A stretch of DNA of 63,948 nucleotides, counting the filler, from Raillietiella orientalis (Eukaryota): NCBI GenBank assembly GCA_036172245.1. It is 3 parts of 3 records of this genome, joined end to end, with 100 filler letters (N's around TTAATTAATTAA, not from the genome) between each part and the next. Parts side by side here need not be neighbours in the genome. Positions count along the whole stretch, not along the records: positions 1 to 30,988 come from JAYWIR010000204.1; 2 more parts are not named here. The stretch is one strand, 5' to 3'. Below, in pieces: positions 1 to 60,856 of this stretch (positions are counted from its first letter, which is position 1; every line of letters begins with the position of its first letter). The notes under the pieces are model-generated. The model searched no databases. It was not told where the DNA came from and saw only the letters and a program-made list of their open reading frames with translations. The translations under genes and the position numbers were made by a program.

Positions 1-37
1 CACCACAAAAGCACGTCCACCCTCTCAGGCGGCGGGT

Positions 38-1742
38 TGTTCACACCCGGATGTGCCGGGGCATTTATTTCATAGAAATAAACTAACAGAAAAATTGTCG
101 CGTGGCGAACCCGAAGGTTCACCACTCCATAACAGCTTGCTGGTTACCGGCTCCGTGCCGGAGAGGTCCTTCCGATGCGCGGGGATGGGAAATAAAGAAA
201 AACAAAAAGAAACAAAAAGTTCAAATGTGGGGGGGGAACAAATGTTGTAGGGATGGGAGGGCGGGGAAGGGATCACGGTGCGCGTGGAGAGGTCCTCTAG
301 ATCCTATTCAGGATCCGCACAAGCTGAGTCCTTTCAGCGCCCAAGTGGCGCCACTTGCAGAAACTTCGCGCGAAAACGCGAGTCCAGTGTAAGGCGTTGC
401 CGGTTGGCTGACGCCTTCTTCTGGTGGCGTTCCAAGCCGCCACTATTCCTCTGATGCAGCAGAGGACTGCTACACTAGCGGGCGGGGAGAAGGCGTCACT
501 ACAGAAGAGGCGCCTGAAAACGTCCTTTGGGCCGAATCCGCGCAAGTCCAGGATCGCCGCGAGACGATCCCATAAAGGGCGGATGGCACTGCACTCGATG
601 AGAAGGTGGGGGAAGGTCTCTTTTTCCCCGCACCGGTCACAATAAGGATCCAAAGCCCCCCGGGTTGTGTGATGAAGGCGTGCTTTGAATGGAAGTCCCC
701 AGAGGACCACAAGCAACGCCACATCCTGCCATTTCAGGGGGAGGGATGCACTGTTCCAGGACGCTGGGGGCCACTTCATCTCCTCCGGAGATAGTCCGAG
801 TAGCTCGCCCCAGCGTCGAATTCCGTTGGGCGGGACACTCGGCGTCGCAGCGTCAGCTAGTTCCGGCGTTGGAGCGACGTTAATCGGGCACACCACTTTG
901 GTGTGGCCCTTCGCGCCGCACGTTGGGCAAACCGCGTCCGGGCACCGCTTTTTCAAATGCCCGAACGACTTACAGTTTCCTCAAAATTTAGGTTTCCCCA
1001 CAAACCAAATGTCTACGAACTCGTCGCCAATTTGGAGCTTGTGGGGAAGCTGTACGCTTTCTCGAAGCGTCACGCGCGCGCCTACTCGCCCACTAAATGC
1101 ACCGTTCACTCCGAAGGTGTTGGGCTTTCTCCACATCGCGAAAATGCTTGCGTATTTTTCCAGTTCAGCGCGGATGGCGTTCTCATCCATCCGCTCTGTT
1201 GTCCCTGTTAGGTGGACCACAATGGAGTGGTCCACCGTGTGTGGGAGCAAATTCCTGCCCTCAAATTGTACGGGCGTGCAGAGCATCTTGTGGGTAATTG
1301 CTGCATCCTTGCAGATGAGCTCCGCCAACTGCCCTCCGCTCCGTATAGAGAGGCAAAGAATTTCATGGTCGGCAATGCCCATCTTTTTGATGGCATTGCC
1401 GAACTTTCTCGCCCTTAACGGGGAATATAAATTGCCTACCTTGTACAGCAGGACCGGATTGTATCCCTCCTGTATGTAGGAATTGATTTCGGCGGCGACA
1501 TCGGGCGTTTCCGCCGCTGCCACCGCGCTCCAGGCCCTCGCCGTAGTGGCGGGTTCAGAAGAAGTGGTGGGGCGTGATCCCACCTCCTTTGGCTTGGGAG
1601 ACGCGGTCTCCCCGCCTCCCTCACCTGAAACTGCGGCGTTCACAGGCATTTCTGCCTGTCAACGGCCGCGAAACTCACATGAAACACCAGAAAAGAAAAA
1701 CTCCTTATCCACGGAGCGCACAACAATTGCGTCCGCCGTGCA
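38..1742 (-). mobile_element. Internally deleted, non-autonomous L1/Tx1-like LINE (ORF1 fused to ORF2 C-terminal zf-RVT; no EN/RT)
   Basis: ORF1 homologous to the other ORF1 copies (YNPVLLYKVGNLYS, VDIWFVGKP, two CCHC knuckles) runs directly into the ORF2 C-terminus (ELADAAT...CDRCGEKETFPHLLIEC). It is followed by a 3' UTR and the family 3' hairpin at 38-69. Confidence 0.85.
297..1649 (-). pseudogene. Chimeric ORF1p/zf-RVT protein (~450 codons) with one in-frame TGA at 981-983
   Basis: ORFs 981..1649 and 297..956 are in the same frame: ...GKPKF*GNCKSFGHLKKRCPDAVCPTCGAKGHTKVVCP. The TGA replaces the first Cys of knuckle 1. Confidence 0.8.
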
Positions 1743-4083
1743 CCGCGCAGTCACGCGCTACTACTCCTCGTTGGACGCGGAGGAGCCCACGGAACGCAGT
1801 CTCTCCGAGCTGCTCCTTCCGACGGGCAACCCTGCAATCGACGAGGAGGAACGCGCCAGATTGGATTGGCTTTTCACGGCGGAAGAAGTATCTTTTGCCA
1901 TAGCGGGCCTGAAAAGGCGTAAGGCGCCTGGGGAAGATGGCCTGCCCGCGGAGTTTTTTCAGTGCTTCGCGGCGGAGCTCGTCCCCCTGGTGCTAAGCCT
2001 TTCCTCGCTGATGCGTGAGACAGGAGATGTTCCCGCTTCTTTCCGCTCAGCAAAGGTGCGGCTCCTGCCGAAAGGCGGTGATTTGCGCCACCTCAGTAAC
2101 TGGCGTCCGATCACATTGGTGAATTCGGACGTCAAGTTGTTCTCCAGGCTATGGGTCGCGCGCCTGGGGAGAATCGCAGAGTCCTTGGTAAGTCCGGAGC
2201 AGACGTATGCTGTTTCGGGGCGGTCCATGGACGCGAATCTCTTCTTCGCGCGAACATGGTTCGAGTTGCAGCAGCGCGTGGCGCAGCAGAGCCAGGCAGC
2301 CGAAATCGCCGCTGCCAAAGGAAAGCGGCGGTGTTCAATGCACGATTGAACGCCGGGAGCCTTAGCGGTCGCCGTCGATCTCTGCAAAGCGTTCGACAGC
2401 GTAAATCAGGACCTCCTTCTGGAGCCTCTGGGACGCCTAGGGCTCCCGACGCACCTCATCGCCTACTTGCGCTCCTGCTGGCGCTACGCGTTATGCTGTA
2501 TCTCTTTCAGCGGGCGTCACGTGTACGGTGTTTCCATACGGCGGGGTATCAGGCAGAGAGACAGATTAAGCCCCCTCCTCTTCAGCATCTTCTTTGAGTT
2601 GGTTCTGAGGGCGTACAGGCTGACGCTATCCAACCTGCCGAGCTCCTGCCCGGGAACAGCGGCCGTGGCCGCCTATGCTGACGACCTTCTCCTGCTGCTG
2701 CCCATGTCCACCCCGGCGTTCCCTTGGGCGCCTTCTGTTCAGCAGAAGCGTGATCGGACTGCCTTCACAAGGCAGACTGCTCTGGGCCCGCTCCAAGTCT
2801 GCAGGTTTCTCCTGTCGGAACGGGCCTTCGTGTGGAACATTTTAGTTGCCACCCTCCTCCGTCCCCTCTTTTTTGTTTGTCCCCCTCCCTACTCGGCTGA
2901 GCGCCGGGCGCAAGGCCTGTTGCGTAACGCCCTGTGGGGACCGGAGAGGTCCAGGATACGCCTGAAGGACTTGGCGTTTCCTCGGCGGGATGCAGGTTTG
3001 GGCATCCTGACGCTGGAGCCGATCGAACTGCTAGTGCAGTTCTGCATGCTGGCACTTTGTGCGCAGCTCTGGACTACTCCCTGGTGTGCTCCAGCGCGGC
3101 TGCTGCTGCGACGCAGCACGGGTGGCGACGGACTACGTTCGTTGCATTTGCGCACGGAGCGCGCCCAGAGAGCATTCGGCTTCCCTTTGAAACAGCTCGC
3201 CACGCTTCTGGGAAAGCATGAGTGGATCTCCTGCCGGCCGACGAACTTCAACGCCTGGAGGCAGGAAGCCTTATCGTCCTGGGAAGCGCAACAGGATGTG
3301 TCGCGTTTGGAACTCCGTTGCGTGAAACTTTCCCCATACTGTCCAGTGGGGGAGGTGCTGGAAGACCAGGACCAGTGGACACTCCTATTCGCTACGGCAC
3401 TCGCCGCAGCACTGTGTGCACTGATGGTGCGAGATGACAGTGACCTGCCGGCGAGGTGGGAGATCACTAGCGAAATCGCAGGCGAAACCCGACTGCTGGG
3501 CGGCTGGCGGACTTGCGAAGTGGCAGACGCTGCCACAGCTCGCATTCTTGCTAAGGGGCTTCTCCGGTGGAGTGAGCTCCTCGGGGTGCCCACCGATGAA
3601 CTTGTGGTCCCTTCTGCGTGTTTGGACGCGACTCTCTTCCCCCTTCGGTGGAAGAAGGACGCTTTTCTGCTGGTGCATTTGGGTTTGTACTGCAACCAGA
3701 GGGCGCACCTGATTTCCGGTGGAGTTGCGTCCTCGAACTGTGCCAAATGCGGAGCGGTGGAATCGCTTCCGCATTTGCTGTTGGAGTGCGGTGCCCTCCA
3801 GGAGCTGTGGCAGCGGCTGTTTTCAGCGGTCCTGCATCCTGGACACACCGCACTGGATTGGATGCGCCGCTTCTACTCGCGTGGCGAACTTTGTCTTGGA
3901 GCGTTCGACGCAATCATCTGCTGCGTCCGCGCCATTGTCAGAGCCCGCTACGTATTGCAGATGCGGGCAGTCTCAACATCGGTCCCCGACACCGCAGCCT
4001 GCAACCTGCAAATGGCTGCCGGGTGGCCACATCTTGGAGCAAAAGTGAGGATGGAGATCGGCGGCTTTCACCGCCGGTTCTAA
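1743..4083 (+). pseudogene. LINE ORF2 reverse transcriptase + zf-RVT (5'-interrupted, TGA at 2347-2349, deletion after YADD)
   Basis: ORFs 1483..2349 and 2467..4083 share a frame across one TGA. Relative to the copy at 29468-30565, the segment SSLEYFF...YL after LPMSTP is missing. Confidence 0.85.
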
Positions 4084-4290
4084 GAACAGGAACGATTAGA
4101 CTGTAAACCTCTATCCCCGCCCTCCCACCCAGTTTATTTATTTATTGTCCCACCCCCTCCGGTTCCGAACTCTCAGTGTGTCCGTACTGCGTTCCGGGAA
4201 ATCTACTCCCCATTTTCTGTTCCTCTTGCCTCGGAAAACAGTTCTCAGTTGATATCATAATAAACGTCCCGGCGCAACCGGGTAATAAAC
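1743..4290 (+). mobile_element. L1/Tx1-like LINE, 3' part (RT, zf-RVT, 3' UTR, terminal hairpin)
   Basis: RT motifs KAPGEDGLPAEFF, WRPITLVNSDVKLF, VDLCKAFDSV, GIRQRDRLSPLLF and YADD; zf-RVT CAKCGAVESLPHLLLEC; 3' motif at 4259-4290. Confidence 0.92.
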
Positions 4291-5480
4291 GACAACGCTG
4301 CATTCTTCAATTTGCTCGCTTGCCTGCTGTTTTTTCTGGCGGTACGCGAGCTTTTTGTCCATCCTCCTCTCCTTCTTTGGTTTTTGGCCGTTGCCAACTG
4401 CCACCCAGGCTCCTGGCTTGTTCCCTCGACTTGTTCGGCGTTGTTCGCCGGGATCTCGGGTGCGGCCTGGGCCTTGGGCGCGGGTGGCACAGCCTTGGCG
4501 GCATCTTTCGCCGCCAGCCTTCTCTGCAGAAGCCATGCACGTTTTTAAAGGTATCTCTAGGAAAGCACCCGCACTGCTGCTTTAGGGCACACCTCCCTCG
4601 TGTGTCTCATGGTTGCGCATACTTGGCACTGCACATTAAGACACCTCTTTTTGATGTGGCCCGACGTATTGCAGAAGCCACATTATTTCGGTTTCCCCAC
4701 ATACCAGAGGTCGACGGTTTCGCCTTCGACCACCAGTTTGTGAAGAAGAGTGCAGTTCTCATAAACGGTCACGCGCGCAGCAGTAAGGCCGTGCTGCAGC
4801 CCCGTGTAGTCCTAGAAAGGACTAACTTTCGTCCACTGCGCGTGGACCGTTCCAAATTTTCTAGCGCGGCGCGAACCTGTTCCTTGCGCATTCGCGCGGT
4901 ACCACCTAACAGGTGGACCACCATGCTGCGGTCCGCCGTAATAGGGAGGAGCCTGCGCGTCCTTATCACCACGGGGGTTTGAAGCTGTCGTTGGGCCAGC
5001 TCTGCTTGTTTGCAGATGACCTCAACGTACTGACCCCCGCTGCGGATGGTCATAGCGCTGAGCTCCTCCTCTTTCACCTCGAGAGCGCGCATGCCCTTCG
5101 AAAAGGCGCGCGCGTTCTCTAAAGAATATAAATTGCTTACTTTGTAGAACAATGAGGGGTTGTACTTCTCCTCTACATACTCCGACAATTCCGCCGCGGC
5201 TGCAGGCGATGGCGCCGACACAACGGCGCCCCACGCCCGCGCTGCAGGGGGACCGATTCTGTGGGGGCGCATGCCCCCACTTCCATCGCCTCCGGGGGCG
5301 ACGTTGCCGCCTCCCCCTGGCTCTCCATCGCCTCTGGGGGTGGCGTTGCCGCTGCTTCCTGGCCGTCACTGGTGTTCGCGTCATGGATCGCTGCCTGATC
5401 GACCACCGAACCACACGACGCTTGCACTGGGGGAGACTTCCTGGCATGAGGAGCATCGAGAAAACACGTCCACACTAGAG
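4291..5480 (-). mobile_element. LINE 5' part (5' motif + frameshifted ORF1), cut in the ORF1 tail
   Basis: ARAWGAVVSAPS, YNPSLFYKVSNLYS, ADRSMVVHLLG and a knuckle region near 4570-4690; 5' motif GGACGTGTTTT at 5461-5471 (minus). Confidence 0.88.
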
Positions 5481-7541
5481 CACGCAAAGCGTTCGACTGC
5501 GTGACTCAGGATCTCCACCTGAAGCTCCTGGTACGCCTCGGTCTGCCGGTGAACCTCGTGGCCTCTTTGCGCGCCTGCTGGCGGCATTCGCTCAATTTTA
5601 TTTCTTTTAGCAGCTGCCACGTGTACGGCGTGCCGGTGTGCCAGGGCGTCAGGCAAGGTAAAAGCTTAAGCCCATTGCCCTCTAGAATCTTCTTTGAGTT
5701 GGTGCAGAAGGCGTACAGGCTGACGCTGTATAACCTGGAGAGCTTTTGTCCAGAACGCCGTCCGCGGCTTTCTATGCTGACGGTCTTCTTCTCCTTTTAC
5801 CCATGTCTTCCAGTCTCGCGGACTTCTTCGAGGTGATTCGCCGGGGACTGGGCGTAAGCGTAAACCGGAGCAAGAGCGTGGTCGTTCCTATTGGTACGGC
5901 GTGGGAGGGGCAGTCCTTCTGGATCCACCTGGGGATCGCGACTGCTTTCTCCATTTTATATCTAGGCGTTCCACTGGGGAACATCAGCTTAGTGGAAGTG
6001 TAGTGGGACGTTTTCGGAAGGCTACGAGTGCACTGCGCCCGTTCTGCCATGGCAGGTTCGGGCCGCGATATGGAACACTTTCGTTGCCCTCCTCTTGCGC
6101 TTCCTGTTTTTTCTTTGCCCGCCATCAGACTCGGCGAAGCTTCAGGCGCACACCCTGTTGACGAATGGACTGTGGGATCCTGCGCGGTCCAGGTTCCGCC
6201 TGAAAGTCTTGGCGGCTCCGCGTCGGGATGCTAGCTTAGGCATCCTGACGCTGGGGAGAATCGAACTGCTGGTGCAGCTTCGGATGTTGGCCCTGTGCGC
6301 CAACCTTTGTTTCACCACGTGGTGCGCTCCTGCGCGCCTGCTCCTGCGGCAATGTACCGGCAGCAATGAACTTCTGTCGCTGCGACCGCACACGTAGCGC
6401 TCCACGAGTAGCTTCGGTTTCCCGTTTGAACCACTCTACCGGCATTTGGCAGCCCAATCATGGATCTCCTGCCGTTCAACGAACTCTGATTCCTGGTGGC
6501 AAAAACCGTTGCATGGCTGGGAAAAGCACCAGGGTGTTTCTCTCCTGGATCTTCGTTGCATTCACCTCTTCCCGTACTGCACGGTGGATGAGGAGTTCAA
6601 CAGCCAGGAGAAGTGTACTCGCCTGGCCGTCACGCCCCTCGCCGACGCGCTGTCAGCCCTCAGAGCAAGAGATGACAGCTGCGAACCGGCGAGATGGGAG
6701 GTCGCTGCACCATCGTAGGAAGAACACGACCTATTGGCGGCTGTAGGACTTGCGAGCTGGCAGACGCCGCAACGCCTCCCCACATCCCGAAGGGACTATT
6801 TCGATGGAGTGAACTCTTGAGTGTGGCCCCCGAAGAACTTGTGGTCCCTCCCTCCTATATAAACACTTCTGTGTTCTCCCTTTAGTGGAAGCAGTACGTC
6901 ATCATACTGCTGCATTGGGGTTTTCACTCCAACCAGCGGACGAACCTTGTTTCCGGAAGAGTTGTCTCCTCAAACTGTAAGCGGTACGAAGAAGTGGAAA
7001 CACTCCCGCACCTGCTACTGGACTGCGGTGCTCTCCTAGGAGAGTGGCGGAGGCTGGCCTCAGCTCTTCTGCACCAGGGGGACACCACGAGAGACTTGAT
7101 GCGCCGCTTCTTTACGCCAGGCGTCTTTGGGTAATGTCGTTGCAACCGTGTGTTGCACCCGCGCCATCCAAAAGGCTCACCGAGAGTTGGAGACGCTGGC
7201 CAACCTTCGTCAGCTCACCGGATTAGCCAGCACAAGCATGTCGTCGGCTGCCGAGTGGGCTCAACTGCCACAGGACGTAAGGAGAGAGATCGCCGGCATC
7301 CATCGCTGGTTTTGAAAGGAAGGAACGGCGTTACCAAAGTCCGCTGTCTCCGGCCCTTCATATTTTCATTTTTTTTATAGTAGTGTATTTGTGGTCCCCT
7401 CTCTTCCTTTCCGTACTTTTGGCATACCGACCTGCGTGTCTGGGATCCCACCCCCTTCGTCTCTTGTTTTTTCCTTTTTCCAAGAACTCTGTACCTTGAT
7501 AGTTTCTTAATAAACGCCCCGGCGCACCCGGGTGATGAACA
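5481..7541 (+). mobile_element. LINE 3' part (RT from KAFD onward, zf-RVT, 3' UTR, hairpin), degenerate
   Basis: KAFDCV, GVRQGKSLSPL, YADG (mutated YADD), YLGVPLG, TCELADAAT; several stops and frameshifts; 3' motif at 7509-7541. Confidence 0.9.
7509..7541 (+). other. Family-wide LINE 3'-terminal signal (AATAAA + CCCGG-N5-CCGGG hairpin + TGATGAACA); representative copy
   Basis: Also at 38-69(-), 4259-4290(+), 10069-10098(-), 11021-11050(+), 14570-14602(+), 27089-27119(+), 28507-28540(-). Confidence 0.85.
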
Positions 7542-9560
7542 GTTCGTACCCCGCGATGGTCTCGTTCTCCTGGACCTCTGCCGCGGTGTTAACGTGGATC
7601 TCTCGAAGCAGGCTCAGGTCGAGTTCACGCAGGGTGTCGGCCGTATCTCGCCTGTTACCTTGGTCGCGCAGCCCGTTGACATTCCGCGACGACTGTCGAG
7701 CCCAGGTGTTACTCCTGGAAAAGTTGCAGTACGGCGTCCGTCACCTGCTGGGGCGGGATGCTATGTGGAGGAGGAGGGTTATGTGCTCAAGGCACCTGGT
7801 CCCCCTCCTCCATGGGTAACGGCTCGTCGAGCGGGTCACACGCAGTTGGGGTCGCGCCTACCGGTTGGCTCTCCTCCATGGGGGCGGGCTGTTCAGGGTC
7901 GGCGCCTGCAGGAAGGACTTCACCCACCTGCTCACCCTCCTCCATGGGGTGGCCAGCTCGACGGCTTCCGAGCGTGGGAGTTCCCCCTCCGGGAATCTCA
8001 CGCTTCCGCTACCTTTCTGCTTCTCCTCCTCTCTGGTGGAGGGCAGGCGCCTCCTGGGCTTCTGGGGCTAGCGTCCCGACTTCCTGGTGGGCGCCTCCGC
8101 GGAGGAGGACGAACTTCGGTCCCCCAGGTCGCATTCACCTGCAGGGGCCTTCTTTGCTGGAGCCGGCCTTTGCACGGCCTTGCGCGGGAAGTTCTCACGC
8201 TCCTCCGGCGTGGCCGCGAGCTCCTCCGCCGCCTTCGCGTAGGCGGCGTCCTCGCCGGCGGCGAGCGCTTCGCGAGGCTAACCCTCTGTTTGCACAGAGG
8301 GTTCGCCGTCGCGAACCTCGGGCGCGCCAGAAACGGCGAGGGGAGGCTCGTCGCCCCGGGTGGCAGCCTCGGGAGCGATGACGAGTTTCAGTGCTACCTA
8401 GCACTCGCGGAAAGTTTTCGATCGCGTACCGGGTTTCTTTGTTTTCGCGATCTTCTTTTTCCCTGCTTTCTCCGGTTCTTCGTTGGAACCCTTCCTCTCT
8501 TTTCTGGCTTTTACAACCTGCCAGCCTACTTAACCTTCTTATGCTTGGTACGGTTGTTCCTCCGAATTTTGCGCCGGAGGTTCAGGTGCTGGCAGCTTCT
8601 CCCGTCCACTTTCTGCCTTCGGTCTTGCGACCTTTAATGCGCGTTTCCCCTGCGCTTTTTTGGCGGCAGGAGGAAGCGGGGTGGGGCGCTTGGGGCACAC
8701 GCACCGAACGTGACCTCGTTCTTCGCACAGGTAGTACTATATGTTCGGATACCTTTTGCGTAGGTGTCCTACTGTGTTACAGTGCCCACAGTAGCGTGGT
8801 TTTCCCACGTATCAGAGGTCTACGGCTTCCTGGGAGAACTCGAGCTTGTGAGGTAGCGCTCTACCCTCCTTCACGGTGACACACGCTGCGGCCTGGCCCC
8901 CGAAAACGCTATTGTAGCCCTCAAAAATAGAAGCTTTTAACCTCAGCTCGTGAACCTCTCCGAATTTTTTCAATTCCTCACCAACCGCAGACCGCATCAT
9001 GCGGCTGGTGATGCCGGTCCGATGCACCACTACGGAGCGGTCCATCGTGACTGGTAGGATCTTGCGCCCATCCCTGTCCAGCGGGGTGGTGATCAGACTT
9101 TGCGTCAAGTAATTTCCTTACAGACAACCTGGACCCGCTGACCCCCGCTAAGCACGGAGAGGCCGTCACGATCCTTTGCTAAAAATATTGGCGTTCTGCA
9201 GCGCTTTCGTGAAGGCGCGTGCAGTTCGCCCATAGAAAAGCTTGCCTACCTGGTAGAGTAGCGAAGGTTCATAACCCGCTACCTTGTAGGCTTCCATCTC
9301 GGTCATGGCTTTCGCGCTAGGCGCGGCACCCATGGCTCTCCAACTCCTCGCCTTGCGCGGAGAGGGCGATTCCGGGGATGATGGCCCTGTTCCATTTGGC
9401 TGTGGGGGAGTACTAGCCTCCCCCACGCTTACATTAAGCGCAGTGTTCTCTGGCATCGTCGCCATCGGACACCGGCGATGTGTGAAAACACGAATACTAG
9501 CAAAGAAACTCTCTCCAAGCCTGGCTGACGAAGCGTGAAAAAAACACGTCTGTACTCGAC
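7542..9560 (-). mobile_element. LINE 5' part: 5' motif, degenerate ORF1 (ATG 9465 to TAA 7709) and start of the APE endonuclease
   Basis: Colinear with the copy at 60992-63050 (SPRKARSWRAM, YEPSLLYQVG, MDRSVVVH, three PMEE repeats). An EIHV-containing EN start lies at 7542-7690. Confidence 0.88.
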
Positions 9561-10068
9561 GAGTGGAATCTGGGGACCGGGTCCGCAACGAAAATTCGTA
9601 TTTGTATGCCCGTGGTTACGCGAAGAAATCAACGTACGTCGCTTGGCAGAATACCGCGTCGAGACAGAGAGCGAAGCCTGGCAATCCGGGTCGGCCAGCT
9701 TGCTGGACGACCAGTGCCGGGAACACATATCCCCGGCGTCGGTACGGAATCTCCTGTTGTGCTATTATTCCTCCCTTTATGCGAGACCCCCCCGGTACGA
9801 GACGATTTTTGGCGCTTGCTTCCAGATGCTGCCCTTGTAATAGGGGAGGAGGAGAAGTTGAGCTCCGACGAGCCTTCTACACCGGCAAAATTCTCGCCGG
9901 TAACCAAAGGCTCAAGAGGCGTTAAGCTCCTAGGGAGGACGGCTTGACCGCAAATTTTCTCCAGTGCTTAGCGGAAGAACTGGCACTCCCGGTGCTTCAG
10001 TTGACAAGACTGATACGAGACGAAGACTTTGGGCAGCCAAGATAAACCACAGGAGCAACGAAACGTTG
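9561..10068 (+). mobile_element. Degenerate LINE ORF2 fragment (EN-RT linker to RT start)
   Basis: NVRRLAEYR..EAWQSG, YYSSLYAR and APREDGLTANFLQC match 63770-63930 and 1760-1990. Confidence 0.8.
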
Positions 10069-10690
10069 ATGTTCACCCGGATGAGCCGGGACATTGATTT
10101 TAAAAATTCTTACAAAGCAAAATTTCATGATAAAATCATTTGTTTTCAATGTTTGGTTTTTCTTTTATTTTTCTGGTCGACACACATGACCAAACTGTCT
10201 TCGGGCACTTATCCTTACCGACCCGTAAGTCTATAAAGTTCCCTATTGGCGCACGGGATGCAAGAAAACCAAAAAATAGATTGAAATAAGCAAACAACAA
10301 AAACGATGGAAGGCACAAGGTTTTTTTGGAGGGGAGAAAAGGGAAGGGATCACAGTGCACCGTAGAAAGGGCTTTGTATCCGGGTTTGGATGCGAAGAAG
10401 TGCCGACCAATTTTTTGTGAAGTCGCCTCCCACGGGAAGACTTCTGCAAAGAGACGGTTGCTCAGTGATAGCATTGCAACATCTTCGTCCTCTCCTTGTT
10501 GCCGTCCACTTCTCCAGAATTCCGCGTAAGCAGCAGAGCACTGCTACACCTGCGGGGCTGAAATGTGTCTTGCAACTGGAGGCGTCTAAAAATGTTTTTT
10601 CGGTCGCCAATGCCACAATGTGTAGGGCAGATGAGTGTCTATCCCTCATCTGGCGGAGAGCAACACACTCCACCATCTCTTTGCAGGAGG
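10069..10690 (-). mobile_element. LINE 3' end (zf-RVT tail, 3' UTR, hairpin)
   Basis: VAVLCCLRGILEKWTATRRGRR matches VAVLCCIRGIVAAWNATRRRR of 297..956; CCCGG-CTCAT-CCGGG-TGAAC at 10071-10090 (minus). Confidence 0.8.
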
Positions 10691-11052
10691 CGTCAATTCA
10701 GTGCGTACTAAGAAAACTTCTGTTGGCACTTGGTGGCATCCATACCCGGATGCAAAGGCCTCCATACGGAGTACCGCGATCAGTTCTATTCCCCCCCCCT
10801 TCCAAAAAGCATTGTCTTCCCAGTCGTTTGCTTTTTTTTTTTCCCTGTATCTTTTTAGCCTTCTGAGCCTGTGAAGAGGTCCTTACCTGCTTGAAGCTCG
10901 GTAAGGACAAGTGTTTAAAGACCTTCAGAACTCTATCTGCTGAAACATAAAAAAAAAAATCTTTATTGATTTTTTTAAAAGACAGCGTTTTATGGAATTT
11001 TGATACAAGAAAATTTCAATAATAAAAGCCCCGGATTACTCGAGTGAAGATC
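10691..11052 (+). mobile_element. LINE 3' UTR fragment with degenerate terminal motif
   Basis: Similar to the reverse complement of 10070-10430; AATAAAAGCCCCGGATTACTCGAGTGAAGA at 11021-11050. Confidence 0.7.
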
Positions 11053-13700
11053 CACGAAGATTTACTCGACTACGCTTGAACTAGATTATGAAAAACCCAC
11101 GCAACTTGCTGTTGGCCCCTTCTACCTTTCCTCCTACCTTGCTGCTCTTCCTCACGAACACTAGGGACTGAAACATTCGGGAACTGTTGGAGGTGTCCTG
11201 TTTCGTTGAAGGCACAAGGAAACTCTTAGAAGCGTGCACGATACAAGAGTTATTCGACGTTTCGTCTTCGAGCCCAAGTCTAAAACACTTCTGCATCGAA
11301 GCGAACTGCTCGGACCATGATCTTTTTGAGGACTGTGTCAAGATGATCTCGCGAAAATAATTTAAAAGGAGCGCATGTCAGATGCCGAAGACGAATCTAA
11401 ACGAACAGTGATTTACTTCCTGCCTTCCCTTCCTACAATAAATGTTTCTTCTTTTTCAATTCTTTCCCTTTATTTGTGTATTTCTTTTTCCTTTTCTCTT
11501 GTCCTTCAAGATCAGCGTTGTGTAGAAGAAGTTTATTGATGGATACTTCGACATATCCGGTTGTTAGACATCGTTTGGGGTTGAGCATTTCCAGCTCTTC
11601 TCGTAGGGCGGGCACTCTGTCCTGCACTACCAGATTTGGCGCTCAGCGCTTGCCTTTCACTCTGCAAGATGCTCGACGTCAACGATTCTGGAAACGGTCA
11701 CCGTCTGCAGAAATTCTCAATTGTTAGCTACGACTTCCCCGGATCCGCGTGGAAGGCGATGCAAAGAGAACCGGCTGCAGAGCTCTCCGACAAGTCTTTT
11801 GAAATGGTCACTGTGCGAATGTTTTTTGATTTCGAAGTCGCAAAGACGCTGACAAAGATGTTCAGCAGCTTCCCAATAGCTATGCAATTCCCTTTATAAG
11901 CTCCTGTTGTTTTACGGAAGCCTCTTGCTTATCGTGAGAAGCTCGAATCTATGCTGGTCCGACAACTCAGGTCGTATTTTTCCTGTCCTCTTTACGCGGG
12001 AATACAGGTTATAATCGAAGACCAAATGAACCAGCGATCTTTCCTTCCTAGGTTTCTGTCCTTGAAGTTGGTTGCATGCACATACGCGCACATCTAGATG
12101 GCTAGCGAGCACACCCTTGAGCACATGTAGTCGTCCGAAAGCAGGCAGACTTTGAAGTCCCTCGCGAATATGCGAACCAATAATGGGCTGAAGATCTTCA
12201 GCCAGTGGCACTGCACTTTGCAAAAGAATACTATCATTTTGGCGAGACAGCTCACGCCACTCGGCTCGTAGACGTTCGTAGCGAAAAGATCGATTGACTC
12301 GCACCATTTGACGACAGCTTGGTAAAATAGACTGGTCTTGTCGTAACGAACGCCATGCATTGATTTCTCCAATTTGCCTGTTGCGAGGAACGTCACTGCA
12401 TTTGTCCGTCCGACACCGCACCACAAAGGTGGCTTTCCCTCATGGCGTTGCTCTATTTCGGCAGGGTTTAATATTGGTAGGGTTTCTTTTTTGTAAAGTC
12501 GCCAGTTTATGGTGCTCATTTATGACTTCCAAAAGCTCATGGGAGTCTATTTCTTATGATTCTATGATTCTTGCTGGAGTTAAATCAAAATTAGGAGGGT
12601 ATGGAACGGTGAAGTATAATTATGGAAGAGAAGAAGCACGAGCTCCAAGGAGTGAACGACGTTTCCCACTAGTCTCCTCTTTTCGGCGTCTTGAATTTTG
12701 GTCACGTTCGCGCAAGCAACATACTGATGCCTATAAGACGCATTTCCTCTTAAAAGTTCCGAGGAGATGTCAGCTGTTTGCTAGTTTTATCCGTCAGAAG
12801 GACAGGGAGCACACCACTGGTTGGACGCCAATTTCGCCCACGGCTGCCCTCGCTCTGCATGCAGCCGTGTAGAAACTCTGCAGTGCTTCCCTGAATCTTC
12901 TTCTTCTCTTCCTCAGAAGCTAAGCACGTGCACCCTATTCACCTGCTTCCGTTTTCAAGGTCTTGTCCTGGTTCTTTATCCTGAGAGACTCTGGCAATTC
13001 TGCCGAACGCGCAGACTTGTGGTAGGGGAAAAACCAATCGATGATCCCTCAAAAGCAACTTCATGAAAGTCAGGAAAGACTGCCTCTTTGCCTTCAGAGA
13101 AAAACTGGCCGTGTTTGCTAGCTCCACGGCAGTCCTGACTTTGGGTACGTGATCACAGCGTCTCTTTTGGTGACGGTTGTTTCCCGGATGCGCGCGATTT
13201 CTATAGCGAATCGCCTTATCGCGTGAGGAACCTTCCCACGAGTCCTCACCGCGCAACGCTTTTCCGGGAATCACGGAATGTAGTTTTCGAGCGCGTCTTG
13301 TAAGCTTTTAATTTCTGCTCTTTTCTACAACCGTGCGTTTTACTTTACCATCGTCGGAGGCGATCGCGTATCACTACCCGACAACTTCCGAAGTTTCCTC
13401 CACGGCCGACAAAGGCCCTGCCTTCGCAGCAGCTTTGAACGGCTTCTTCTTGGTCTCGTCGGCAACTGTTAATGCTCGTCCTCTCACTGTGTAGGTGTGA
13501 AACGGTTCTCAACTGCGTGCCTGCGCGCGGTAACTGTTTTGGAGTTCCGACTTTCCAAGGTAGATTTTTCCTGCCTCCGTCGAGACATAAACGGTAACCA
13601 GTACCTGCGGTGGATCGTTTTCAACCCACAAAAGCTTTTGTGGACTTCATTCACCCTCCTTGCACCGTGCTATCCTCCCTCAAAGAAGCAAGGGACATAA
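11053..13700 (-). mobile_element. Highly degenerate LINE: probable ORF1 tail, APE endonuclease and linker
   Basis: GRTNAVTFL...GVRYDKTSLFYQAVVKWCESIDLFATNVYEPSG aligns with the EN at 62873-63292. ELSDQH resembles LSDH. DHFKRLVGELCSRFSLHRLPRGSG resembles DLFKASVREFCEEFLLHRLPPGFG. Confidence 0.65.
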
Positions 13701-13879
13701 AAAAGGAGGCATCCTGAGAAGTGTCCTACCTCATCGGATGCAGGAAAGAAATCATTAAGGCGTGGATAACCCGGGAACCAGCGAAAGCTGCAACATCGAG
13801 TGTCCCACCAAATGGAATTGGCGCTGGGACGAGCTGCTCGGTATTCCCACTGAGAAGGTGAATTGTCCTTCAACGTCTC

Positions 13880-14602
13880 GTGACTACGGCACCCTCTCCC
13901 TGCAGTGGTAGGAGACGGTGTAGCTTCTGCTCCATTGGGGACTTTGTGAGCAGAGAAACTCCTTTCTCATGGTCCTCCGGGAGTATGGATTATAATTGTA
14001 CATTGTACCAGGAATGGGAGACCTTTCCCTACTTAGTCATTAAGTGTTTTTCCCTGCGCCAGATGTAAAATCGACTCTTATCGACCCTAAACATTCCGAT
14101 TAGAAATCCGAAAAACATTTTCATACGCCTCCTGTTGCAAGAAGCCATGCCAGCCCCCGCATGTGTAGCGGTGCTCTGTTGCATACTTGTTATTTTGGAC
14201 AAGTGGACTGCAACCAGGAGAGAACGAAGAAGTCGGAATTCTATCCACTGTGCAACCATCTCTTTAACATTTGCCGCCACTTGTTCTCATCTAAACCCGG
14301 ATGCAGAGGCTCTCCACGGCATACCGTGATCCCTTTCCTTCTCTTCCCACCCTATAGACATTGTCCCCCAAGCATTTTTACTTTTCTCGGTTTCTTTGTT
14401 TTGTTTTGTTTTCTCTTTTCCCCGTCCCATTTGTCAGTGGAGAGGACCTCATCGGCATACATTTCGGAAATGACAAGTGCTTAAGACAATAAGAACAGTG
14501 TGTTCTGAATGGAAAACAAGTACAGACGACAGAACTTGATTATAAAATACTTAATTGTAAAAATTTTTAATAAGAAAAGCTTCGGCTTACCCGGGTAAAA
14601 AT
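13880..14602 (+). mobile_element. Degenerate LINE 3' end (zf-RVT, 3' UTR, hairpin remnant)
   Basis: CVAVLCCILVILDKWTATRRERR; ETFPYLVIKC resembles ETFPHLLIEC; TTCGGCTTACCCGGGTAAAA at 14581-14600. Confidence 0.75.
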
Positions 14603-14609
14603 CCAAGGT

Positions 14610-15430
14610 GGATAGGATCTCTCGTTATTTAGCTTTTTTTTTCGGCCACTCAAGCGTGTAAGAGTGGAACAGGCGCGCTTTGCGTCATCGTTATTGCTAT
14701 TCTTTACATATTTTGTCACCGCCAATCACTCGGCCTTCATGAAGCGCGATGGCGCAAGTGTGGTTACCCGACCTCTGGCAAGAGCGCTTGCCATAGCCGC
14801 GAGTTTTCCGAGATTCATTTTTTGGGGGCTCTCCTGCCCCGAGAGGGGCTCTGGACGCTTGACGAGCGAGGTCTTTTGCTGTTTGTCAGCATTTGATTCC
14901 ATTTTTGCTGCCTTCTACCGCGCCTTTTGTTTTTCTTCTGCGGAGTTTTTTTTTACCGCGACCTTTTTCGCACGGCAAAGCGTTGAATCTGCCTTCTTGC
15001 TTGTAATTTCCATACAATTTCTTACGTTGTTTCCGGATAACCTATTGTATCGGAATTGACATAAAGGGCAATTTTTGGATTGGTGCCCCCGATCTCCACA
15101 TTTTTGGTATTATGGAGTCTTAAATGCTCACCACAGATGAACGAAAGTGTTTTTCACCTATGGCTTTGTAGGCAGAAGACGACACTCGGGCGTGATGAGC
15201 CACGCCGCATTGGTTCCGCTGTGAATGGACAGGATGTCCTTTAAGGCGCTCCGAACCATCCATAGTGCCTGGACCTTGGCAAATCTCGCCAAAGCGTTCT
15301 ATATTTCGCGATCGAAAACCTCGAACTGCGAATACTCGAATTTGAATAAATAATAACTACAATTGTTATACGATGGATACAAGTCAACAGGAAAGCATTA
15401 TAAATCACTTCGCAGAATACCGAATGGTCA
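14610..15430 (-). mobile_element. Probable degenerate ORF1/gag-like remnant
   Basis: Zinc-knuckle remnant YQKCGDRGHQSKNCP (~15063-15110) followed by a Lys/Arg-rich tail. Confidence 0.4.
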
Positions 15431-16548: not shown

Positions 16549-19079
16549 CTACACAAAATTAAATTCGGTGACATTTTAAAATACTTAAAAACTTTGGAGC
16601 AGAAAGGAGAACACCAACATGCACAATTAGAGCATTAAATTTTTTTCATAGGAAAAATCTAACTTCAAATGCAACAAATACCCAGGAAAGCATGCAGAAA
16701 GCGAGAATAATTTACCCTGAAGAAAACAAGAAGAAATAGTTTCTCAGAGACTCAAGTTCAGTCGCCATACTACCCAAGAGCAATTACTTCAGGAAAAAAT
16801 AAAACAGTTGTAGACACCACTTCTTCAGCTACGGCAGAAGAACTAGAAAACACAAAATGAAAACCATGCCAAAGAGAGTAACAATGCCCATCTCCTGCTT
16901 CAGCAATCATCCTTACAACGAAAAACCAGATTCCCCAATGCATCCTGCCTCCGATAGGTCCAAACAGAATGAGTCCGAATAACCAATGCCGCACTCTAAC
17001 GCAATGCACTAATAACGCATCTGAAGGAATAAGCAATTACGCAGACTGCAGACCTATAAAAACCGTGGTCAACACTTGCAACGAAATGACTCAAACTTGT
17101 GCAGAACACACAGCTTTCGAAAACATCCCACTCCAGTACACGTGATGCAAAGATCCAGGATACCCAGCTGAAGGGGCGTTTGCTGCCAGACGGAGATGCA
17201 AAGCGAGTACAGAATCAAGACGACAAGGTGCGTGCGGCTCGTCGAGAGAAAGCTGTGATAGCAATTTACCAATTCATCAAGCCACACGGCGAAGAACTTT
17301 ATGTTCCTACTCCAAACGTCTTGGCCGCTGAGTTCTTGCAACGGTTCCCATTCACCAGACCTGCAAAGAGAGATCCGGATACTCGCTGAATGATATGCAT
17401 GTCGAGACAGAAAGATATGGCAGCCTGACAAATCGTCCACAGCAAGAGGTGATGTTGAAAAGACAATGGGAAGCTATCGGAATTCGTATCAGTCTCTCTG
17501 TTTGAATCAGTTGCAACTCGCTGCAAAATACTGTACAGTACGGTGCAAATGCAACAAGATGTCCTTCAGCTAAAACATCACGACAGATCCATCCAACACT
17601 CCTGACACTCATCTCTTTTACGTGCATCGTTCCGTGTTTCCAACGCAACTCACCCCACTATCCAGCAGATCGGCTACGATAATGCTCACTTTCTCGCAAA
17701 AAAGGTAACGAGCGTACCGCTCTTAGCTCATAGAATCCTAGAAGTTGTTCCCACTGCCAGCATCGGCTGCGTGTACGCCATCGCCATATACATTTCCCGC
17801 GAGAAGAACGATATATTTAGACGATAGTGTAAGAACGATAGATTATTCAAAATACCGTTTAGATAGCCTGCCGGCTAGCCAAGGATACTTTGAGGAATTT
17901 TTTTGCAGGTGAGGCAGTCTCGAGCAGAGTGGTTCTCCTCCAGAGATATTCATTGAAACATCAGCAGGAACATTAGCCATGAACCCGGCGCGCGTTTCAC
18001 TCGCCTCCACTTCCTGTATAGTTTGCGAAACGGAAGAGCGATGTACTGCGCAGACTGAAGAGCATCGTCCAAGAAGGTGTGACGCGGTTGCATCCAGTTC
18101 AGAGTTCAGCCGTTACAGTTCCGGTCCTTACTGCGTCATCTGACTTTCTAAATTCAAAGATTTGTAAATCAAACGAATATCCAGAAGAGCCCAATTCCAG
18201 CAAGCAGACTGGAAAAAAACCCAATGCACGACATGAGCGAGCGTCAGCACAAAGAGTTCAGGTGCAAAATGAGGTGCAAGAAGCAAACGAAAGGGAAAAG
18301 CAAAATAATTTTCACGATAACGGATGGGTTCATCGTACGAGAATGAACAGAGGAAGGCAAATTGTTCCTCAACACGGAAATAAGCAAGAAGCTCACAGCT
18401 ACGATGCAGACCACTGTAACGTAGAGCCGAAAGTGCCTGATGATGCTACCGCATCTACTTCAAACCATCGCTGCAGCCAAAAACAAAAAATGGCAACACT
18501 CATCGAAGAGAACGGATCCGAATCCAAGTGCCTTTTCCGGATGCGCTATTAACTTTTCGAAAGCTGAACTCTTCTGTGTGGACGGAAGCCGCTAATAGCA
18601 TAGGAAGGCAGTTCCTACTTGGAAACGGAAAATAAAGACCCAAGTGAAAAGGAATTGATTGCAAAAGACATTTATGCTGCACAGAGACAGACTCTTCAGC
18701 TTCGTCCATGACGATTCAAGAGAGAAGATCTTGAATTTCGGCAACGCGTGTTCATAAAAGGCTGATCTCGCAAAACCGCAGTGCGATGGCTCCTTAGTGA
18801 TACGCTGCAATAAAACTCCAGACGCTATAAATACACGTTTTTTGGAGTAAAATCCATGGGTTGGTTGCTCGAAGGAGCAGAAGCTTGAAGATTTTATTAT
18901 CGCCGTTCTTTGTAAAGTAATATTTCAATGTCGATAGATGCCTTAGAGTCTAGTCGGATGAAGTAGAAATTTCTGGGAATCTAACTCGGATAAGATTGAC
19001 AATTTTCATCAAGCGTAACAAGTCAATGCAGTACGGAGGTGCTGATCCATGCGGTTCTGCTCACTGGTGGACAAAATGT

Positions 19080-19920
19080 GCACAAAGCAGAAAACGCATT
19101 TTGGTGGAATGTCAACCCTCTCCATCGTGATATTCCCTGTGCGAAGCAATCGAAGGCAATATGAACTTTTACTAGGGAATTCTTATGCTTAAATTCCATG
19201 GAATATTCTGCGAGATCAATTCACCTTACGCAAAGGGAAGCATGCTGGTTACAAGAGCATCTCTAATCAAATTGCAATCTGCGCTCTAAAAGCCATTTAG
19301 CAATCCCTCGGGGGACTGAGCCACTGACGCATCACAGATGCACTTTTCTCCAGCTGAGGTTCACCAGGTGAGGTTGCAACGATGAGAAAAGCAGCCAATG
19401 CTAAAGTCACGAAAGCGTTTTTTCGTTGCCTTTTCCGGTTTCACGGCACCTGCCAAAAATTGAAGGTTGTCTGGAATTAATTGAGTGCCTCCTTCAAGTT
19501 CAAATACAGAGATGCGAAAATGTTTGTGGACTGGAGCACACGGATATTTACACATCTTGCACCACAATACGTAATTTTCATTCGATAAGTGGATTTTGGG
19601 ATTTCAAAGTTGATTTTCTTCATGTTTTCTTGTGTACCAGCAGTGTGCAAGAAAGTCGACTTTTCAGAATGGAACAATGATGCATTCTTATCTTATTGTT
19701 CACTTTTTAAAGATCAACCGCGGCCGTTTCTAAAATCAAGAAATTGGGATGAAATGTTGCTTCACATCATAATTAACTGCACCAGGCCAAATTGCCTGTT
19801 CGCCAGGCGTTTCCTTGCGATCCTGAGAGGGATAAAAATGCTGCGGCGGATATAGCCATATGAATGAAGCAGAGGACTCTGTGGGTAGAATCGTGTTTGC
19901 CACGAGATCTGTCACTGAGA
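19080..19920 (-). repeat. Arm 1 of a diverged ~0.8-kb inverted duplication; decayed hAT-like transposase segment
   Basis: Reverse complement of ~21850-22680 (e.g. TTTCACGGCACCTGCCAAAAATTGA, GCCATTTAGCAATCC). Translation IPDN...GCFSHRCNL resembles the hAT DN...CxxHxxNL signature. Confidence 0.7.
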
Positions 19921-21849: not shown

Positions 21850-22680
21850 TTGTGCAGATCTAGTGAGCAATGCTGAGATTGGAACAACAGGAATTTGCCG
21901 AGCAATTGGTTTCTCCTGCTGAAATCACTGCGTCATCTAGACATTTCGTAAGAAAAACATTCTGCACATCGTATAGTGGCGGCGTTTGATCTTCGAAAAG
22001 CAAACCGTTGGATAGCAATGCATCTTCATGCCCTCATGAAAAGTAGAAATCCCTGCTGGCTCCTGGTACATAGAAAAAAATGAAAGAAAATCAACTTCGA
22101 AACAAGTTCGAAACAGCACAAGCGTCATCCACGGATGAAAATGATCCACCGTCATCCACCGTCATCGGATGAAAATCAACTGGTGGCGTGGTACAAAATG
22201 AGGAAACTTCTGTAAGTTTCAGCCCACACGCCTATTCACATTTGTTCGTTTGAACTTGAAGGGGACGCACGAAATCCCAAACAAACGTCAATTTTTGGCA
22301 GGTGCCGTGAAACCTGAAGTGGCAATGGAACAACGCTTTCGTGATTTGCAGGGTGGCTGCTTTTCTCATCGTTACCACCACACTTCGTAAATAGCAGCTG
22401 GAGGGGAGTGAACCTGTCATGAGTCAGTTGCTCAGTCCCCCGAAGGATTGCTAAATGGCTTTTAGCACGCAGATTGCAATTTGGTTAGAGATGCTCTTGT
22501 AAGCAGCATGCTTCCCATCGCGTAAGGTCAATTGATCTCGCAGAATACTCCATAGACTTAGAGCTTAAGAACGCCCTACTAAAAGGTCAAATTGTTTTTG
22601 ATTGCTTCGCACAGGAAATATCTTCATCATGATGGAGGGTGGAAGCTTTTCGCCGAAATGCGTATTCTCACTTGCACTGG
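21850..22680 (+). repeat. Arm 2 of the inverted duplication; decayed hAT-like segment
   Basis: IPNKRQFLAGAVKPEVAMEQRFRDLQGGCFSHRYH versus IPDNLQFLAGAVKPEKATKKRFRDFSIGCFSHRCNL in arm 1. Confidence 0.7.
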
Positions 22681-26399: not shown

Positions 26400-27119
26400 T
26401 GTGGATTCCAGTTGTGCAGACTCTTGTGAAAGGGAAATTCCTTCCCGCACCTCCTAATCGAGTGTGCGGCCCTCCTTCCAATGTCCAATGGAGCGTTGTC
26501 GAAAGTGTCCATTCCAGCTGGCAACAGTAACAGCATTTCACGTGGCTCCCTGCTTCAAGACGCCTTCCCAGCTGTCTCGTGTATGGCACGTTTCTGTTTC
26601 GTGCGCGGAATCCTGGACAAGTGGCCTGCGTCAGGGATCATCCGCAACATCCGGAATGCCATTCACTGGAAAGCCATTTCCATTAGAAAAATTGCCCATG
26701 ACACTGCCTTTAAACTCTAGCACCTGTACTTGTCCACGTCTTGTTCGCCTCCGTCTTGCAGAAGACCATCCGTGGCGAGCAGTGATCACTTCTCTCCACC
26801 CATCGGAGAACACCGCTCTCTTAGTTCTCTTTGTTCCCTCTTGTTTTATTTGTGGGTTCTGTCTTCAACGGCTTTATATTTAACAAGGCGTCCTGCGTCA
26901 GGTGTCCTGGATTGGGAACGATTGTGTAGGTACGCTTCATTCTTTAATGTCGAGGGGAGTAGGCCTTACAAGCACTCAAGTCGGTACACAAGTGCAAAAC
27001 AATACGGAAATGTGTTCCAACAGGAACACAAAACAATGAAAAATCAATCGACTGCAATTAAAAATTGTAATTTTGTTTTTTTAAATTGATAAAAGCCCCG
27101 GCTTATCCGGGTGAAAACA
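26400..27119 (+). mobile_element. Degenerate LINE 3' end with terminal hairpin
   Basis: FCFVRGILDKWPASG...NAIHWKAI resembles LCCIRGIVAAWNAT...NALHWTRV; ATAAAAGCCCCGGCTTATCCGGGTGAAAACA at 27089-27119. Confidence 0.75.
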
Positions 27120-30600: not shown

Positions 30601-30988
30601 CTCCAAGGCGGACGTGTTTTCTCGGTGCCTCTTGTGCCAGGATGTCTTCCCCAGTGCAAGCGTCGTGTGGTTCGGTGCTCGATCAGGCAGCGATGCCTGA
30701 CGCGACCACCTGGGATGGCCAGGAGGCGGCGTCAACGTGGCCCCCAGAGCCGATGGAGGTGGGGGCATCCGCCCCCACAGAATCGGTTTCCGCTGCAGCG
30801 CGGGCGTGGAACGCGGTTGCGTCTGCGCAATCGCCTGCAGCCGCGGCGGAATTGTTGGCCTATGTAGAGGAGGGGTATAACCCTTCATTGTTGTACAAGG
30901 TAGGTAATCTCTATTCCTTAGAGAGCGCGTGCGCCTTCTCGAAGGGCATGCGCGCTCTCGATGTGAAAGAGGAGGAGCTCAGCGCTAT
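30601..30988 (+). mobile_element. LINE 5' end and ORF1 start (ATG 30642), truncated by the assembly gap
   Basis: GGCGGACGTGTTTT at 30607-30620; ARAWNAVASAQSP..YNPSLLYKVGNLYSLE; paralogue of 5050-5480. Confidence 0.88.
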
Positions 30989-31088
30989 NNNNNNNNNNNN
31001 NNNNNNNNNNNNNNNNNNNNNNNNNNNNNNNNTTAATTAATTAANNNNNNNNNNNNNNNNNNNNNNNNNNNNNNNNNNNNNNNNNNNN
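30989..31088. other. Artificial contig linker
   Basis: 44 N + TTAATTAATTAA (stops in all six frames) + 44 N. Confidence 0.97.
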
Positions 31089-60756: not shown

Positions 60757-60856
60757 NNNNNNNNNNNNNNNNNNNNNNNNNNNNNNNNNNNNNNNNNNNN
60801 TTAATTAATTAANNNNNNNNNNNNNNNNNNNNNNNNNNNNNNNNNNNNNNNNNNNN
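60757..60856. other. Artificial contig linker
   Basis: 44 N + TTAATTAATTAA + 44 N. Confidence 0.97.

Follow-up and report, generated by a model that had tools for sequence, protein, structure and literature searches.

Antisense-nested LINE copies in Raillietiella orientalis meet at recurrent ORF2 codons, consistent with insertion aimed at sibling elements

[quoted passage not shown] R1/R2-type LINEs of ribosomal DNA (rDNA) may re-insert in tandem at a site that is already occupied, and twin priming of L1 produces head-to-head arms at one locus, both copied from one RNA. Among the target-specific LINEs of the Tx1 clade, the accessible part of the source describes Tx1 in the piggyBac element Tx1D, Tx1-Mar in Mariner-N4_AMi, Tx1-8_Crp and Tx1-4_AMi in long terminal repeat (LTR) retrotransposons, and Keno in U2 snRNA genes (PMC4494074). 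Zepp and ZeppL, G+C-rich L1-type LINEs of Coccomyxa subellipsoidea and Chlamydomonas, are described in the accessible excerpts as inserting into existing copies and forming LINE-only islands (PMC3446292, PMC8226300), and Zepp nesting as yielding tandem arrays mostly of 5'-truncated 3' ends (PMC8226300). Here we describe a stretch of 63948 bases from the Raillietiella orientalis genome (assembly GCA_036172245.1; hereafter the window), in which LINE copies are nested within one another, mostly on opposite strands, and in which several 5' termini meet broken host copies at recurrent codons of the second open reading frame (ORF2). We put the chance at about even that these are target-specific lineages whose antisense insertions are aimed at codons conserved in sibling LINEs.

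The window is composed of three contigs, at 1-30988 (contig 1), 31089-60756 (contig 2) and 60857-63948 (contig 3). They are joined at 30989-31088 and 60757-60856 by identical artificial spacers (N44 + TTAATTAATTAA + N44), so apparent adjacency across them, such as LINEs flanking a satellite, is an artefact of concatenation. Contigs 1 and 3, both LINE-bearing, start or stop inside young LINE copies, which is the place where an assembler would break. Fragments were mapped by blastn of the window against itself, by tblastn with library relatives and the window's own ORFs, and by nhmmer with the best copies. Stop-to-stop ORFs were scanned against Pfam in sets of 22, 114 and 140. The closest library protein relative, P0002, served as coordinate reference for ORF2. 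At each junction we infer that the element with a canonical terminus there is the insert and that the partner broken internally is its host. Fragments are named by letter and strand, and a slash in a motif or coordinate pair marks the breakpoint.

Fragments supported by blastn, tblastn or nhmmer follow one another on strands -,-,+,-,+,-,+,-,+,-,+,- over positions 1-15430 (the nest), on strands +,+,-,+ over 26430-30988 (fragments O(+), P(+), C(-) and C(+)), and on strands -,+ over 60857-63948. Adjacent fragments lie on opposite strands in 13 of 15 pairs (binomial p=0.0037), or in 11 of 13 when two possibly duplicated pairs are omitted (p=0.011). The junctions on the left of contig 1 fall at 38/39, 1737-1747, 4290-4293, 5483/5484, 7540/7541, 9565/9566, 10068-10071, ~10673-10690, 11049-11052, ~13718-13766 and 14601-14604. 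Further junctions lie at 28507/28508 and 30597/30598 near the right end of contig 1 and at 60986/60987 in contig 3. The initial annotation had placed its junctions correctly to within ~15 bases. It had described a strict alternation of strands, which is broken by two same-strand head-to-tail pairs at 38 and 27118. The recurrences it had listed at 28506, 30600 and 60991 are genuine junctions but stand apart from the nest, as the window is made of joined contigs. All five 5' ends that it had placed against an opposite-strand ORF2 (1742, 5480, 9560, 30601 and 60992) were recovered there and are full-length; two more full-length 5' ends, at ~30 and ~27140, adjoin a same-strand 3' end. As for its claim that 3' ends abut opposite-strand copies, seven of the nine 3' ends found do so (five by search, two by eye), but the other two face a same-strand 5' end. 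In the two head-to-tail pairs, the 5' terminus of edge(-) (1-32) lies 6-8 nucleotides (nt) from the 3' end of A(-), and the 3' end of O(+) lies ~20-25 nt before P(+). The spacers at 1-39 and 27118-27148 carry GGCGG on the opposite strand, by eye recalling the LLPKGG codons of ORF2.

The insert is antisense to its host in each of seven independent host-insert pairs (p=0.008). A(-) (39-1742) sits in A(+) (1743-4293), A(+) in B(-) (4294-5483), B(-) in B(+) (5484-7540) and B(+) in D(-) (7541-9565); both D(-) and H(-) (10071-10680) sit in G(+) (9566-10070), and C(-) (28507-30597) sits in P(+) (27140-28506). The 3' end of A(+) falls in the spacer between ORF1 and ORF2 of B(-), near position 62148 of E(+) (z=5.4). 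That of B(+) falls at endonuclease residue ~50 of D(-) (E(+) 63019, z=41), that of C(-) in the C-terminal part of the P(+) ORF2 (by tblastn), and that of H(-) within ~5 codons of LLPKGG in G(+). A linear chain is met on any walk from the centre of a nest to its outside and is thus no surprise in itself; the constant antisense orientation is what is remarkable.

Breakpoints fall twice at each of three positions in ORF2. The first, 2 nt before the K codon of KAFD, is where B(-) and C(+) (30598-30988) each meet a host with an intact 5' terminus (5483/5484 and 30597/30598). The second lies just before the G codon of GFGE, within the LPPGFGEG linker, where D(-) and E(+) (60987-63948) each meet a host with the 5' terminus (9565/9566 and 60986/60987), and nhmmer places 9566 at E(+) 63712. 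At PPA/IRD, the 5' terminus of A(-) meets A(+) at 1738-1747, corresponding to P0002 residue 13-15, and the old host F(-) (11572-12429) ends at 11569-11572, which nhmmer places at E(+) 63886, the same position within ≤9 nt. The PPA/IRD coincidence is certainly the product of two separate events, because in one case a young G+C-rich host lies beside a 5' terminus and in the other an old degraded host has a different neighbour. The ten objectively mapped host breakpoints include three pairs that agree to within 10 nt, a result matched by 0.13% of random sets in simulation. At five of the six junctions of these three sites the insert is antisense; at the sixth (11569-11572) the neighbour M(+) was assigned by eye only. 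The geometry, register and orientation of the paired arms can be read directly from these junctions, and the arms are different elements. That copies start from a shared codon in the enzyme gene of the host suggests that they aim at one another.

The copies do not belong to one LINE family, as the initial annotation had assumed, but to several lineages distinguishable by their 3' untranslated regions (UTRs) and ORF1s. Amino acid identity among the ORF1s of A(-), B(-), D(-) and E(+) is 35-46% by tblastn, save for 67% between D and E, and the lineages at the three sites accordingly differ. B(-) and C(+) make up one lineage (K), D(-) and E(+) a second (G), and A(-) represents a third. In 3' UTR alignments, A(+), B(+) and C(-) form one group (59-80% alike), and A(-), H(-), I(+) (10681-11052), J(+) (13718-14604) and perhaps O(+) (26402-27118) form another. 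The nest, inside which contig 1 starts, holds copies of at least four lineages. The earlier idea of antisense insertion into own copies thus stands as to orientation and as to 5' ends at recurring ORF2 positions, but the hosts are of other lineages.

A mechanism that could account for these observations would begin with an endonuclease, of inferred specificity, whose nick falls in a conserved coding motif on the sense strand of a sibling LINE. The next step, target-primed reverse transcription, would leave the inserted element in antisense orientation. That element would itself be the landing site for the next lineage, and in this presumed order of events an alternating chain would result. The two head-to-tail pairs would be explained by a second insertion beside a site already taken. 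In its fullest form, which we hold tentatively and rate a little under even, the proposal is of a guild of LINE lineages homing in, invariably in reverse orientation, on conserved ORF2 codons of one another (the GFGE linker, PPA/IRD and KAFD). Each landing would disable a competitor and make the next landing pad, and LINE-only islands would self-assemble away from host genes.

Several observations weigh against this proposal. The A(+)/B(+)/C(-) group is antisense at all its visible 3' junctions although these occupy three separate host positions, so orientation may be set by something besides site recognition. For this group, either recognition is present but unseen, or orientation does not come from site recognition; target specificity would therefore hold at most for some lineages. 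Past the truncated 5' end of H(-), G(+) does not resume, and I(+), a 3' UTR only, follows head-to-head. No element in the window has both junctions in one host together with a target-site duplication, and the mirror-order halves expected by the initial annotation are not visible in it. When three internal same-strand discontinuities (A(-) ~872-890, P(+) ~27989-28123 and N(-) ~14950-15053) are counted as junctions, the proportion of opposite pairs falls to 13/18 (p=0.048) or 11/16 (p=0.105). Each site is represented by just two instances, and collapsing the B/C and D/E pairs leaves one coincidence among eight breakpoints (p=0.099). The identity differences between inserts and hosts, given below, are modest, and blocks within the D/E insert itself range from 68 to 82%. 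Finally, a chimeric transcript ending at the host 3' end could have been retrotransposed as a unit.

A rival explanation, which we consider rather unlikely, is that the locus is a LINE graveyard formed without site recognition. At KAFD and at GFGE, a composite of an antisense 5' part and a host 3' part would have arisen once and then been copied, either by duplication of the DNA or by retrotransposing a chimeric transcript, and the strand bias would result from loss of direct-repeat nests by recombination, with inverted ones retained. Consistent with copying, blastn similarity runs unbroken across the junction in both composites (B vs C, 80.4% over 2527 bases; D vs E, 73.5% over 2180 bases), and each junction occurs here in just two copies. 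The internally deleted A(-) and P(+) could be recombination scars, and the lack of a common host position for the 3' ends of the A(+)/B(+)/C(-) group would also be expected. However, B(+) and C(-) are alike precisely as far as their canonical 3' ends, beyond which the sequences are unrelated (the D(-) endonuclease vs the P(+) ORF2), so these two hosts look like separate retrotransposition events. Moreover, inserts are closer than hosts in both pairs: 331/378 (87.6%) vs 1692/2055 (82.3%) in B/C (p=0.013), and 1495/1995 (74.9%) vs 84/129 (65.1%) in D/E (p=0.016). Independent landings of younger elements in older hosts would give such a difference. As the host parts are RT (reverse transcriptase) coding and expected to be better conserved, their lower identity favours independence. 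A chimeric transcript would have to start more than 1.1 kb inside an antisense element, and copying does not account for PPA/IRD, where the events are clearly different. From these alignments, the KAFD and GFGE pairs are likely independent insertions.

The head-to-head pairs could instead be the products of single events, namely 5' inversion by twin priming, break ends both priming on LINE RNAs, or template switching of the RT at the RNA 5' end. The geometry fits, with 3' ends outward and an intact or truncated 5' end meeting the 5' side of the other arm. The overlapping arms, however, are different elements in both testable pairs, and two diverged copies would not share a truncation point to the nucleotide if truncation were random. 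Twin priming from one RNA was rejected for the A and E pairs, since A(-) and A(+) share 48% identity and E-host(-) (60857-60986) and E(+) 68.5%; the latter is no closer than E(+) and G(+) (68.2%). Against the two-RNA version stands the left flank of A(-), which is another 5' terminus and not a continuation of B(-). Single events are in our judgement improbable. A similarly low probability is given to chance, that is, random orientation and position over-read from a small sample. The sample is indeed small, several by-eye site assignments in the degraded part collapsed on testing, and the conservative counts above for strand bias (p=0.105) and site coincidence (p=0.099) would be compatible with it, but the full counts (13/15 opposite, 7/7 antisense and three coincident breakpoint pairs, p=0.0037, p=0.008 and p=0.0013) speak against it. 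False strand switches from collapsed or chimerically joined repeats appear very improbable. It is true that the contigs joined in the window end in young LINE copies, and that no listed contig of X1, the only public sequence run found (share 0.07; contigs of 221-598 bases among those listed), bridges a junction. Nevertheless, junctions fall exactly at canonical element termini, and the KAFD and GFGE junctions recur in register in copies 13-35% diverged, the GFGE pair on separate contigs, and therefore are unlikely to be assembly joins.

By sequence, the elements are best classified as APE-type (AP-endonuclease) LINEs of the L1/Tx1 group. We name the group and not the Tx1 clade because the relatives carried no name or taxon. 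Pfam RVT_1 was detected at 2350-4080(+) (E=2.1e-10) and 29468-30682(-) (E=8.3e-9), with weak RT matches at 1480-2346(+) and 5450-5833(+), and P0002 aligns by tblastn to A(+) over residues 13-604 (E=1.4e-149). The AP-endonuclease family Exo_endo_phos was found in E(+) at ~62876-63190(+) (E=2.7e-7, 31 bits vs a cutoff of 24.5), as the sole match among 140 ORFs. A zf-RVT match at 300-980(-) (E=2.1e-5, 25.5 bits) is under the curated threshold of 27.5; a C..C..H..C pattern is visible by eye in A(-) and A(+). ORF1 carries by eye two CX2CX4HX4C knuckles, for which Pfam zf-CCHC gives E=0.047, and no RRM family match was obtained for ORF1 in the Pfam scan. The domain layout is thus ORF1 with CCHC knuckles (by eye) and ORF2 comprising AP-endonuclease, RT and a putative C-terminal CCHC. 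Matches to APOBEC3 (E=0.031) and holin (E=0.013) in the 114-ORF scan were dismissed as noise. Full-length copies share a 5' terminus containing GGACGTGTTTT. The 3' ends have no poly(A); those examined (39-75, 4260-4293, 7510-7540, 10071-10100, 27090-27118 and 28508-28540) show AATAAA-like letters, a 5+5 G+C hairpin and then ...GAAC. Several 3' ends are directly followed by ATC, which may belong to the element or to the target. The family is sparse in the protein libraries, where P0002 is the one close relative (E=2.1e-93) and only 7 of 2120 matches reach E≤1e-10. Another seven distant loci related to P0002 (22-61% identity over short segments) were not used. The cluster annotation of the relatives contains RVT_1/zf-RVT alone.

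At the left edge of the nest, edge(-) is a minus-strand 5' terminus (motif at 8-18) that the start of the window truncates. A(-) retains the canonical terminus at either end, an ORF1 at 984-1658, the C-terminal CCHC part of ORF2 at 300-980, a 3' UTR and the 3' hairpin motif. Its ORF1 is joined near 872-890 straight to the ORF2 C-terminus, and endonuclease and RT are missing. Three X1 contigs diverge from the window sequence at 860, which indicates that other copies of this element continue normally. P(+) and N(-) (15053-15292) show similar jumps just after ORF1. A(+) carries ORF2 from P0002 residue ~13 (PPA/IRD) to the canonical 3' end, including RVT_1 and zf-RVT, and its LLPKGG and KAFD codons are intact in translation. 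B(-), of the K lineage, has an intact 5' terminus (motif at 5461-5471) and an ORF1 at 4581-5242 with 46% amino acid identity to A(-). It is broken ~290 nt past ORF1 by the A(+) 3' end, and its flank maps to E(+) 62017-62131 (z=5.4). In the N-terminal part of its ORF1 region, a 42-bp unit occurs twice at 5282-5363 with 82% matches. In B(+), the ORF2 part begins 2 nt ahead of the KAFD lysine codon and extends as far as the canonical 3' end (tblastn to P0002 230-586; blastn to 28507-30988, 80.4%). D(-), of the G lineage, comprises the 5' terminus (motif at 9541-9551), ORF1, a ~1 kb spacer and the first ~50 endonuclease residues, where it is cut by the B(+) 3' end. It aligns to 60857-63019 by blastn (73.5%) and locally to E(+) 62883-63019 (z=41).

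Beyond D(-), the copies are more fragmentary, and right of 10.1 kb the sequence is legible only in part. G(+) is an ORF2 piece from the G of GFGE, in the endonuclease-RT linker, to ~5 codons short of LLPKGG (nhmmer to E(+) model 2726-2949, E=2e-24, and A(+) 18-281, E=1.8e-13; P0002 56-108, z=15). H(-) is 5'-truncated and retains the ORF2 C-terminus and 3' UTR (nhmmer to A(-) model 1139-1694, E=1.1e-23), with its canonical 3' end adjoining G(+). All that remains of I(+) is a 3' UTR, whose canonical 3' end is degenerate (nhmmer to A(-) model 1370-1606, E=1.8e-6). The region 11052-13800 had initially been read as one minus-strand fragment; 11572-12429 alone is supported. This is F(-), an old host spanning endonuclease to RT N-terminus (nhmmer to E(+) model 2043-2900, that is E(+) 63029-63886, E=4e-24). 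On either side, no significant match was obtained for 11053-11571 or 12430-13765 in alignment and shuffling tests. J(+) is 5'-truncated and contains the ORF2 C-terminus, 3' UTR and 3' end (nhmmer to A(-) model 866-1602, E=2.6e-52). N(-) is an ORF1 remnant (tblastn to E(+) ORF1 residues 139-220, E=1.7e-4), separated from J(+) by a segment assigned by eye only (14605-15052).

On the right of contig 1, O(+) is 5'-truncated with a canonical 3' end (motif at 27096-27113; nhmmer E=6.4e-8). P(+) is an old LINE comprising a 5' region and ORF1 at 27148-27989, followed by an RT-thumb to C-terminal piece at 28123-28467, and is cut by the C(-) 3' end (nhmmer to E(+) model 11-881, E=5e-17; tblastn to P0002 522-589, E=1e-7). 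C(-) carries ORF2 from KAFD to the 3' end, with the same lineage and junction register as B(+) (nhmmer to B(+) model 2-2058). C(+) bears a K-lineage 5' terminus (motif at 30610-30620) and the start of ORF1, 87.6% identical to B(-), and runs into the end of contig 1. In contig 3, E-host(-) is an ORF2 linker piece starting at the G of GFGE, cut by the contig start, and is compared above with E(+) 63712-63841. E(+), of the G lineage, extends from its 5' terminus through ORF1 and a spacer into the endonuclease (from 62876) and the N-terminal part of the RT, and runs off the window; its last part, 63847-63948, matches P0002 1-34 by tblastn. The GDFN endonuclease codons are uninterrupted in both copies that carry them, E(+) (~63400-63450) and F(-). 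G+C content is 0.56-0.62 in the inner, well-preserved copies vs 0.35-0.50 in the outer, degraded ones (background 0.43), a gradient that fits inner copies being younger; G(+) (0.547) and H(-) (0.455) depart from the trend. The CpG observed/expected ratio in contig 1 is 0.75-1.2 with no CpG depletion, so LINE decay was not CpG-driven.

Outside the LINEs, contig 2 (31089-60756) is entirely a 180-bp satellite with 164.5 copies and 88% matches (Tandem Repeats Finder, TRF) and a G+C content of 0.41-0.42. It shows a strong constant GC skew of ~+0.22 and many long minus-strand "ORFs", which are the repeat in frame. In contig 1, two inverted repeat pairs (16928-17431 vs 23583-24086 and 19089-19725 vs 21978-22668; 72-78% identity) flank the middle of an AT-richer stretch at 15.4-26.4 kb and may be an unknown repeat present in two opposed copies. 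ORFs of ≥60 amino acids in this stretch gave no Pfam match. A metagenome pattern scan with the KAFD junction returned 0 matches.

Several further readings of the degraded part were dropped. Four 3' ends (H, I, M and J) had seemed to lie at LLPKGG/D, and this was withdrawn, with H(-) in G(+) alone surviving. The host of M(+) maps to PPA/IRD, and the hosts of I and J are not placeable. F(-) and Q(-) were considered as host halves around M(+) with a duplication; their overlap is dissimilar, Q(-) has no significant match, and M(+) failed significance. J(+) and 12430-13717 as one insert at the endonuclease site of B(+) was abandoned, as F(-) seems by eye to continue upstream and 12430-13765 is unassignable. 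The right end of P(+), placed by eye at PPA/IRD, is contradicted by colinear tblastn matches. A strand-asymmetric nick motif behind the antisense bias was also rejected (CG..GAT, 42 sense vs 50 antisense; GAT, 153 vs 167).

If the proposal of a guild is correct, it would amount to hyperparasitism among retrotransposons, in which the conserved motifs of the enzyme would be a target that mutation could not readily remove. Coding motifs conserved among sibling LINEs and used by a set of lineages in antisense would be a new kind of target. The growth of LINE-only islands, such as the proposed algal centromeres, would be explained without a chromosomal address. The elements would also provide a natural set of sequence-specific AP-endonucleases with known targets, and a testable arms race in which the host element depends on the very motif that is targeted. 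Should the shared junctions instead prove to be duplicates, the locus would be a repeat graveyard like any other, odd only in its strand bias.

In the limited literature searched, no LINEs aimed at coding motifs of other LINEs were found. R1/R2-type elements, as far as the accessible sources describe them, are alike in having a precise target site and a fixed orientation, but their target is a host multicopy gene and not the ORF of another LINE, and R2 uses a different endonuclease. Twin priming differs in that the arms here overlap and differ by 31-52%. Like Zepp, the LINEs of the window insert into existing LINE copies (seven host-insert pairs); unlike Zepp, the nested copies are mostly antisense, only 2 of 15 adjacencies are head-to-tail, and seven 5' termini are full-length. 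The Tx1 clade, as portrayed in the available portion of its description, is alike in containing APE-type LINEs that choose another repeat with fixed position and orientation (PMC4494074). It also shares with the window elements the layout of endonuclease, RT and, putatively, a C-terminal CCHC. The window elements differ from these known cases in that the target would be the coding motifs of sibling LINEs, always hit in antisense, with several lineages each at its own codon, and in that each site has two instances.

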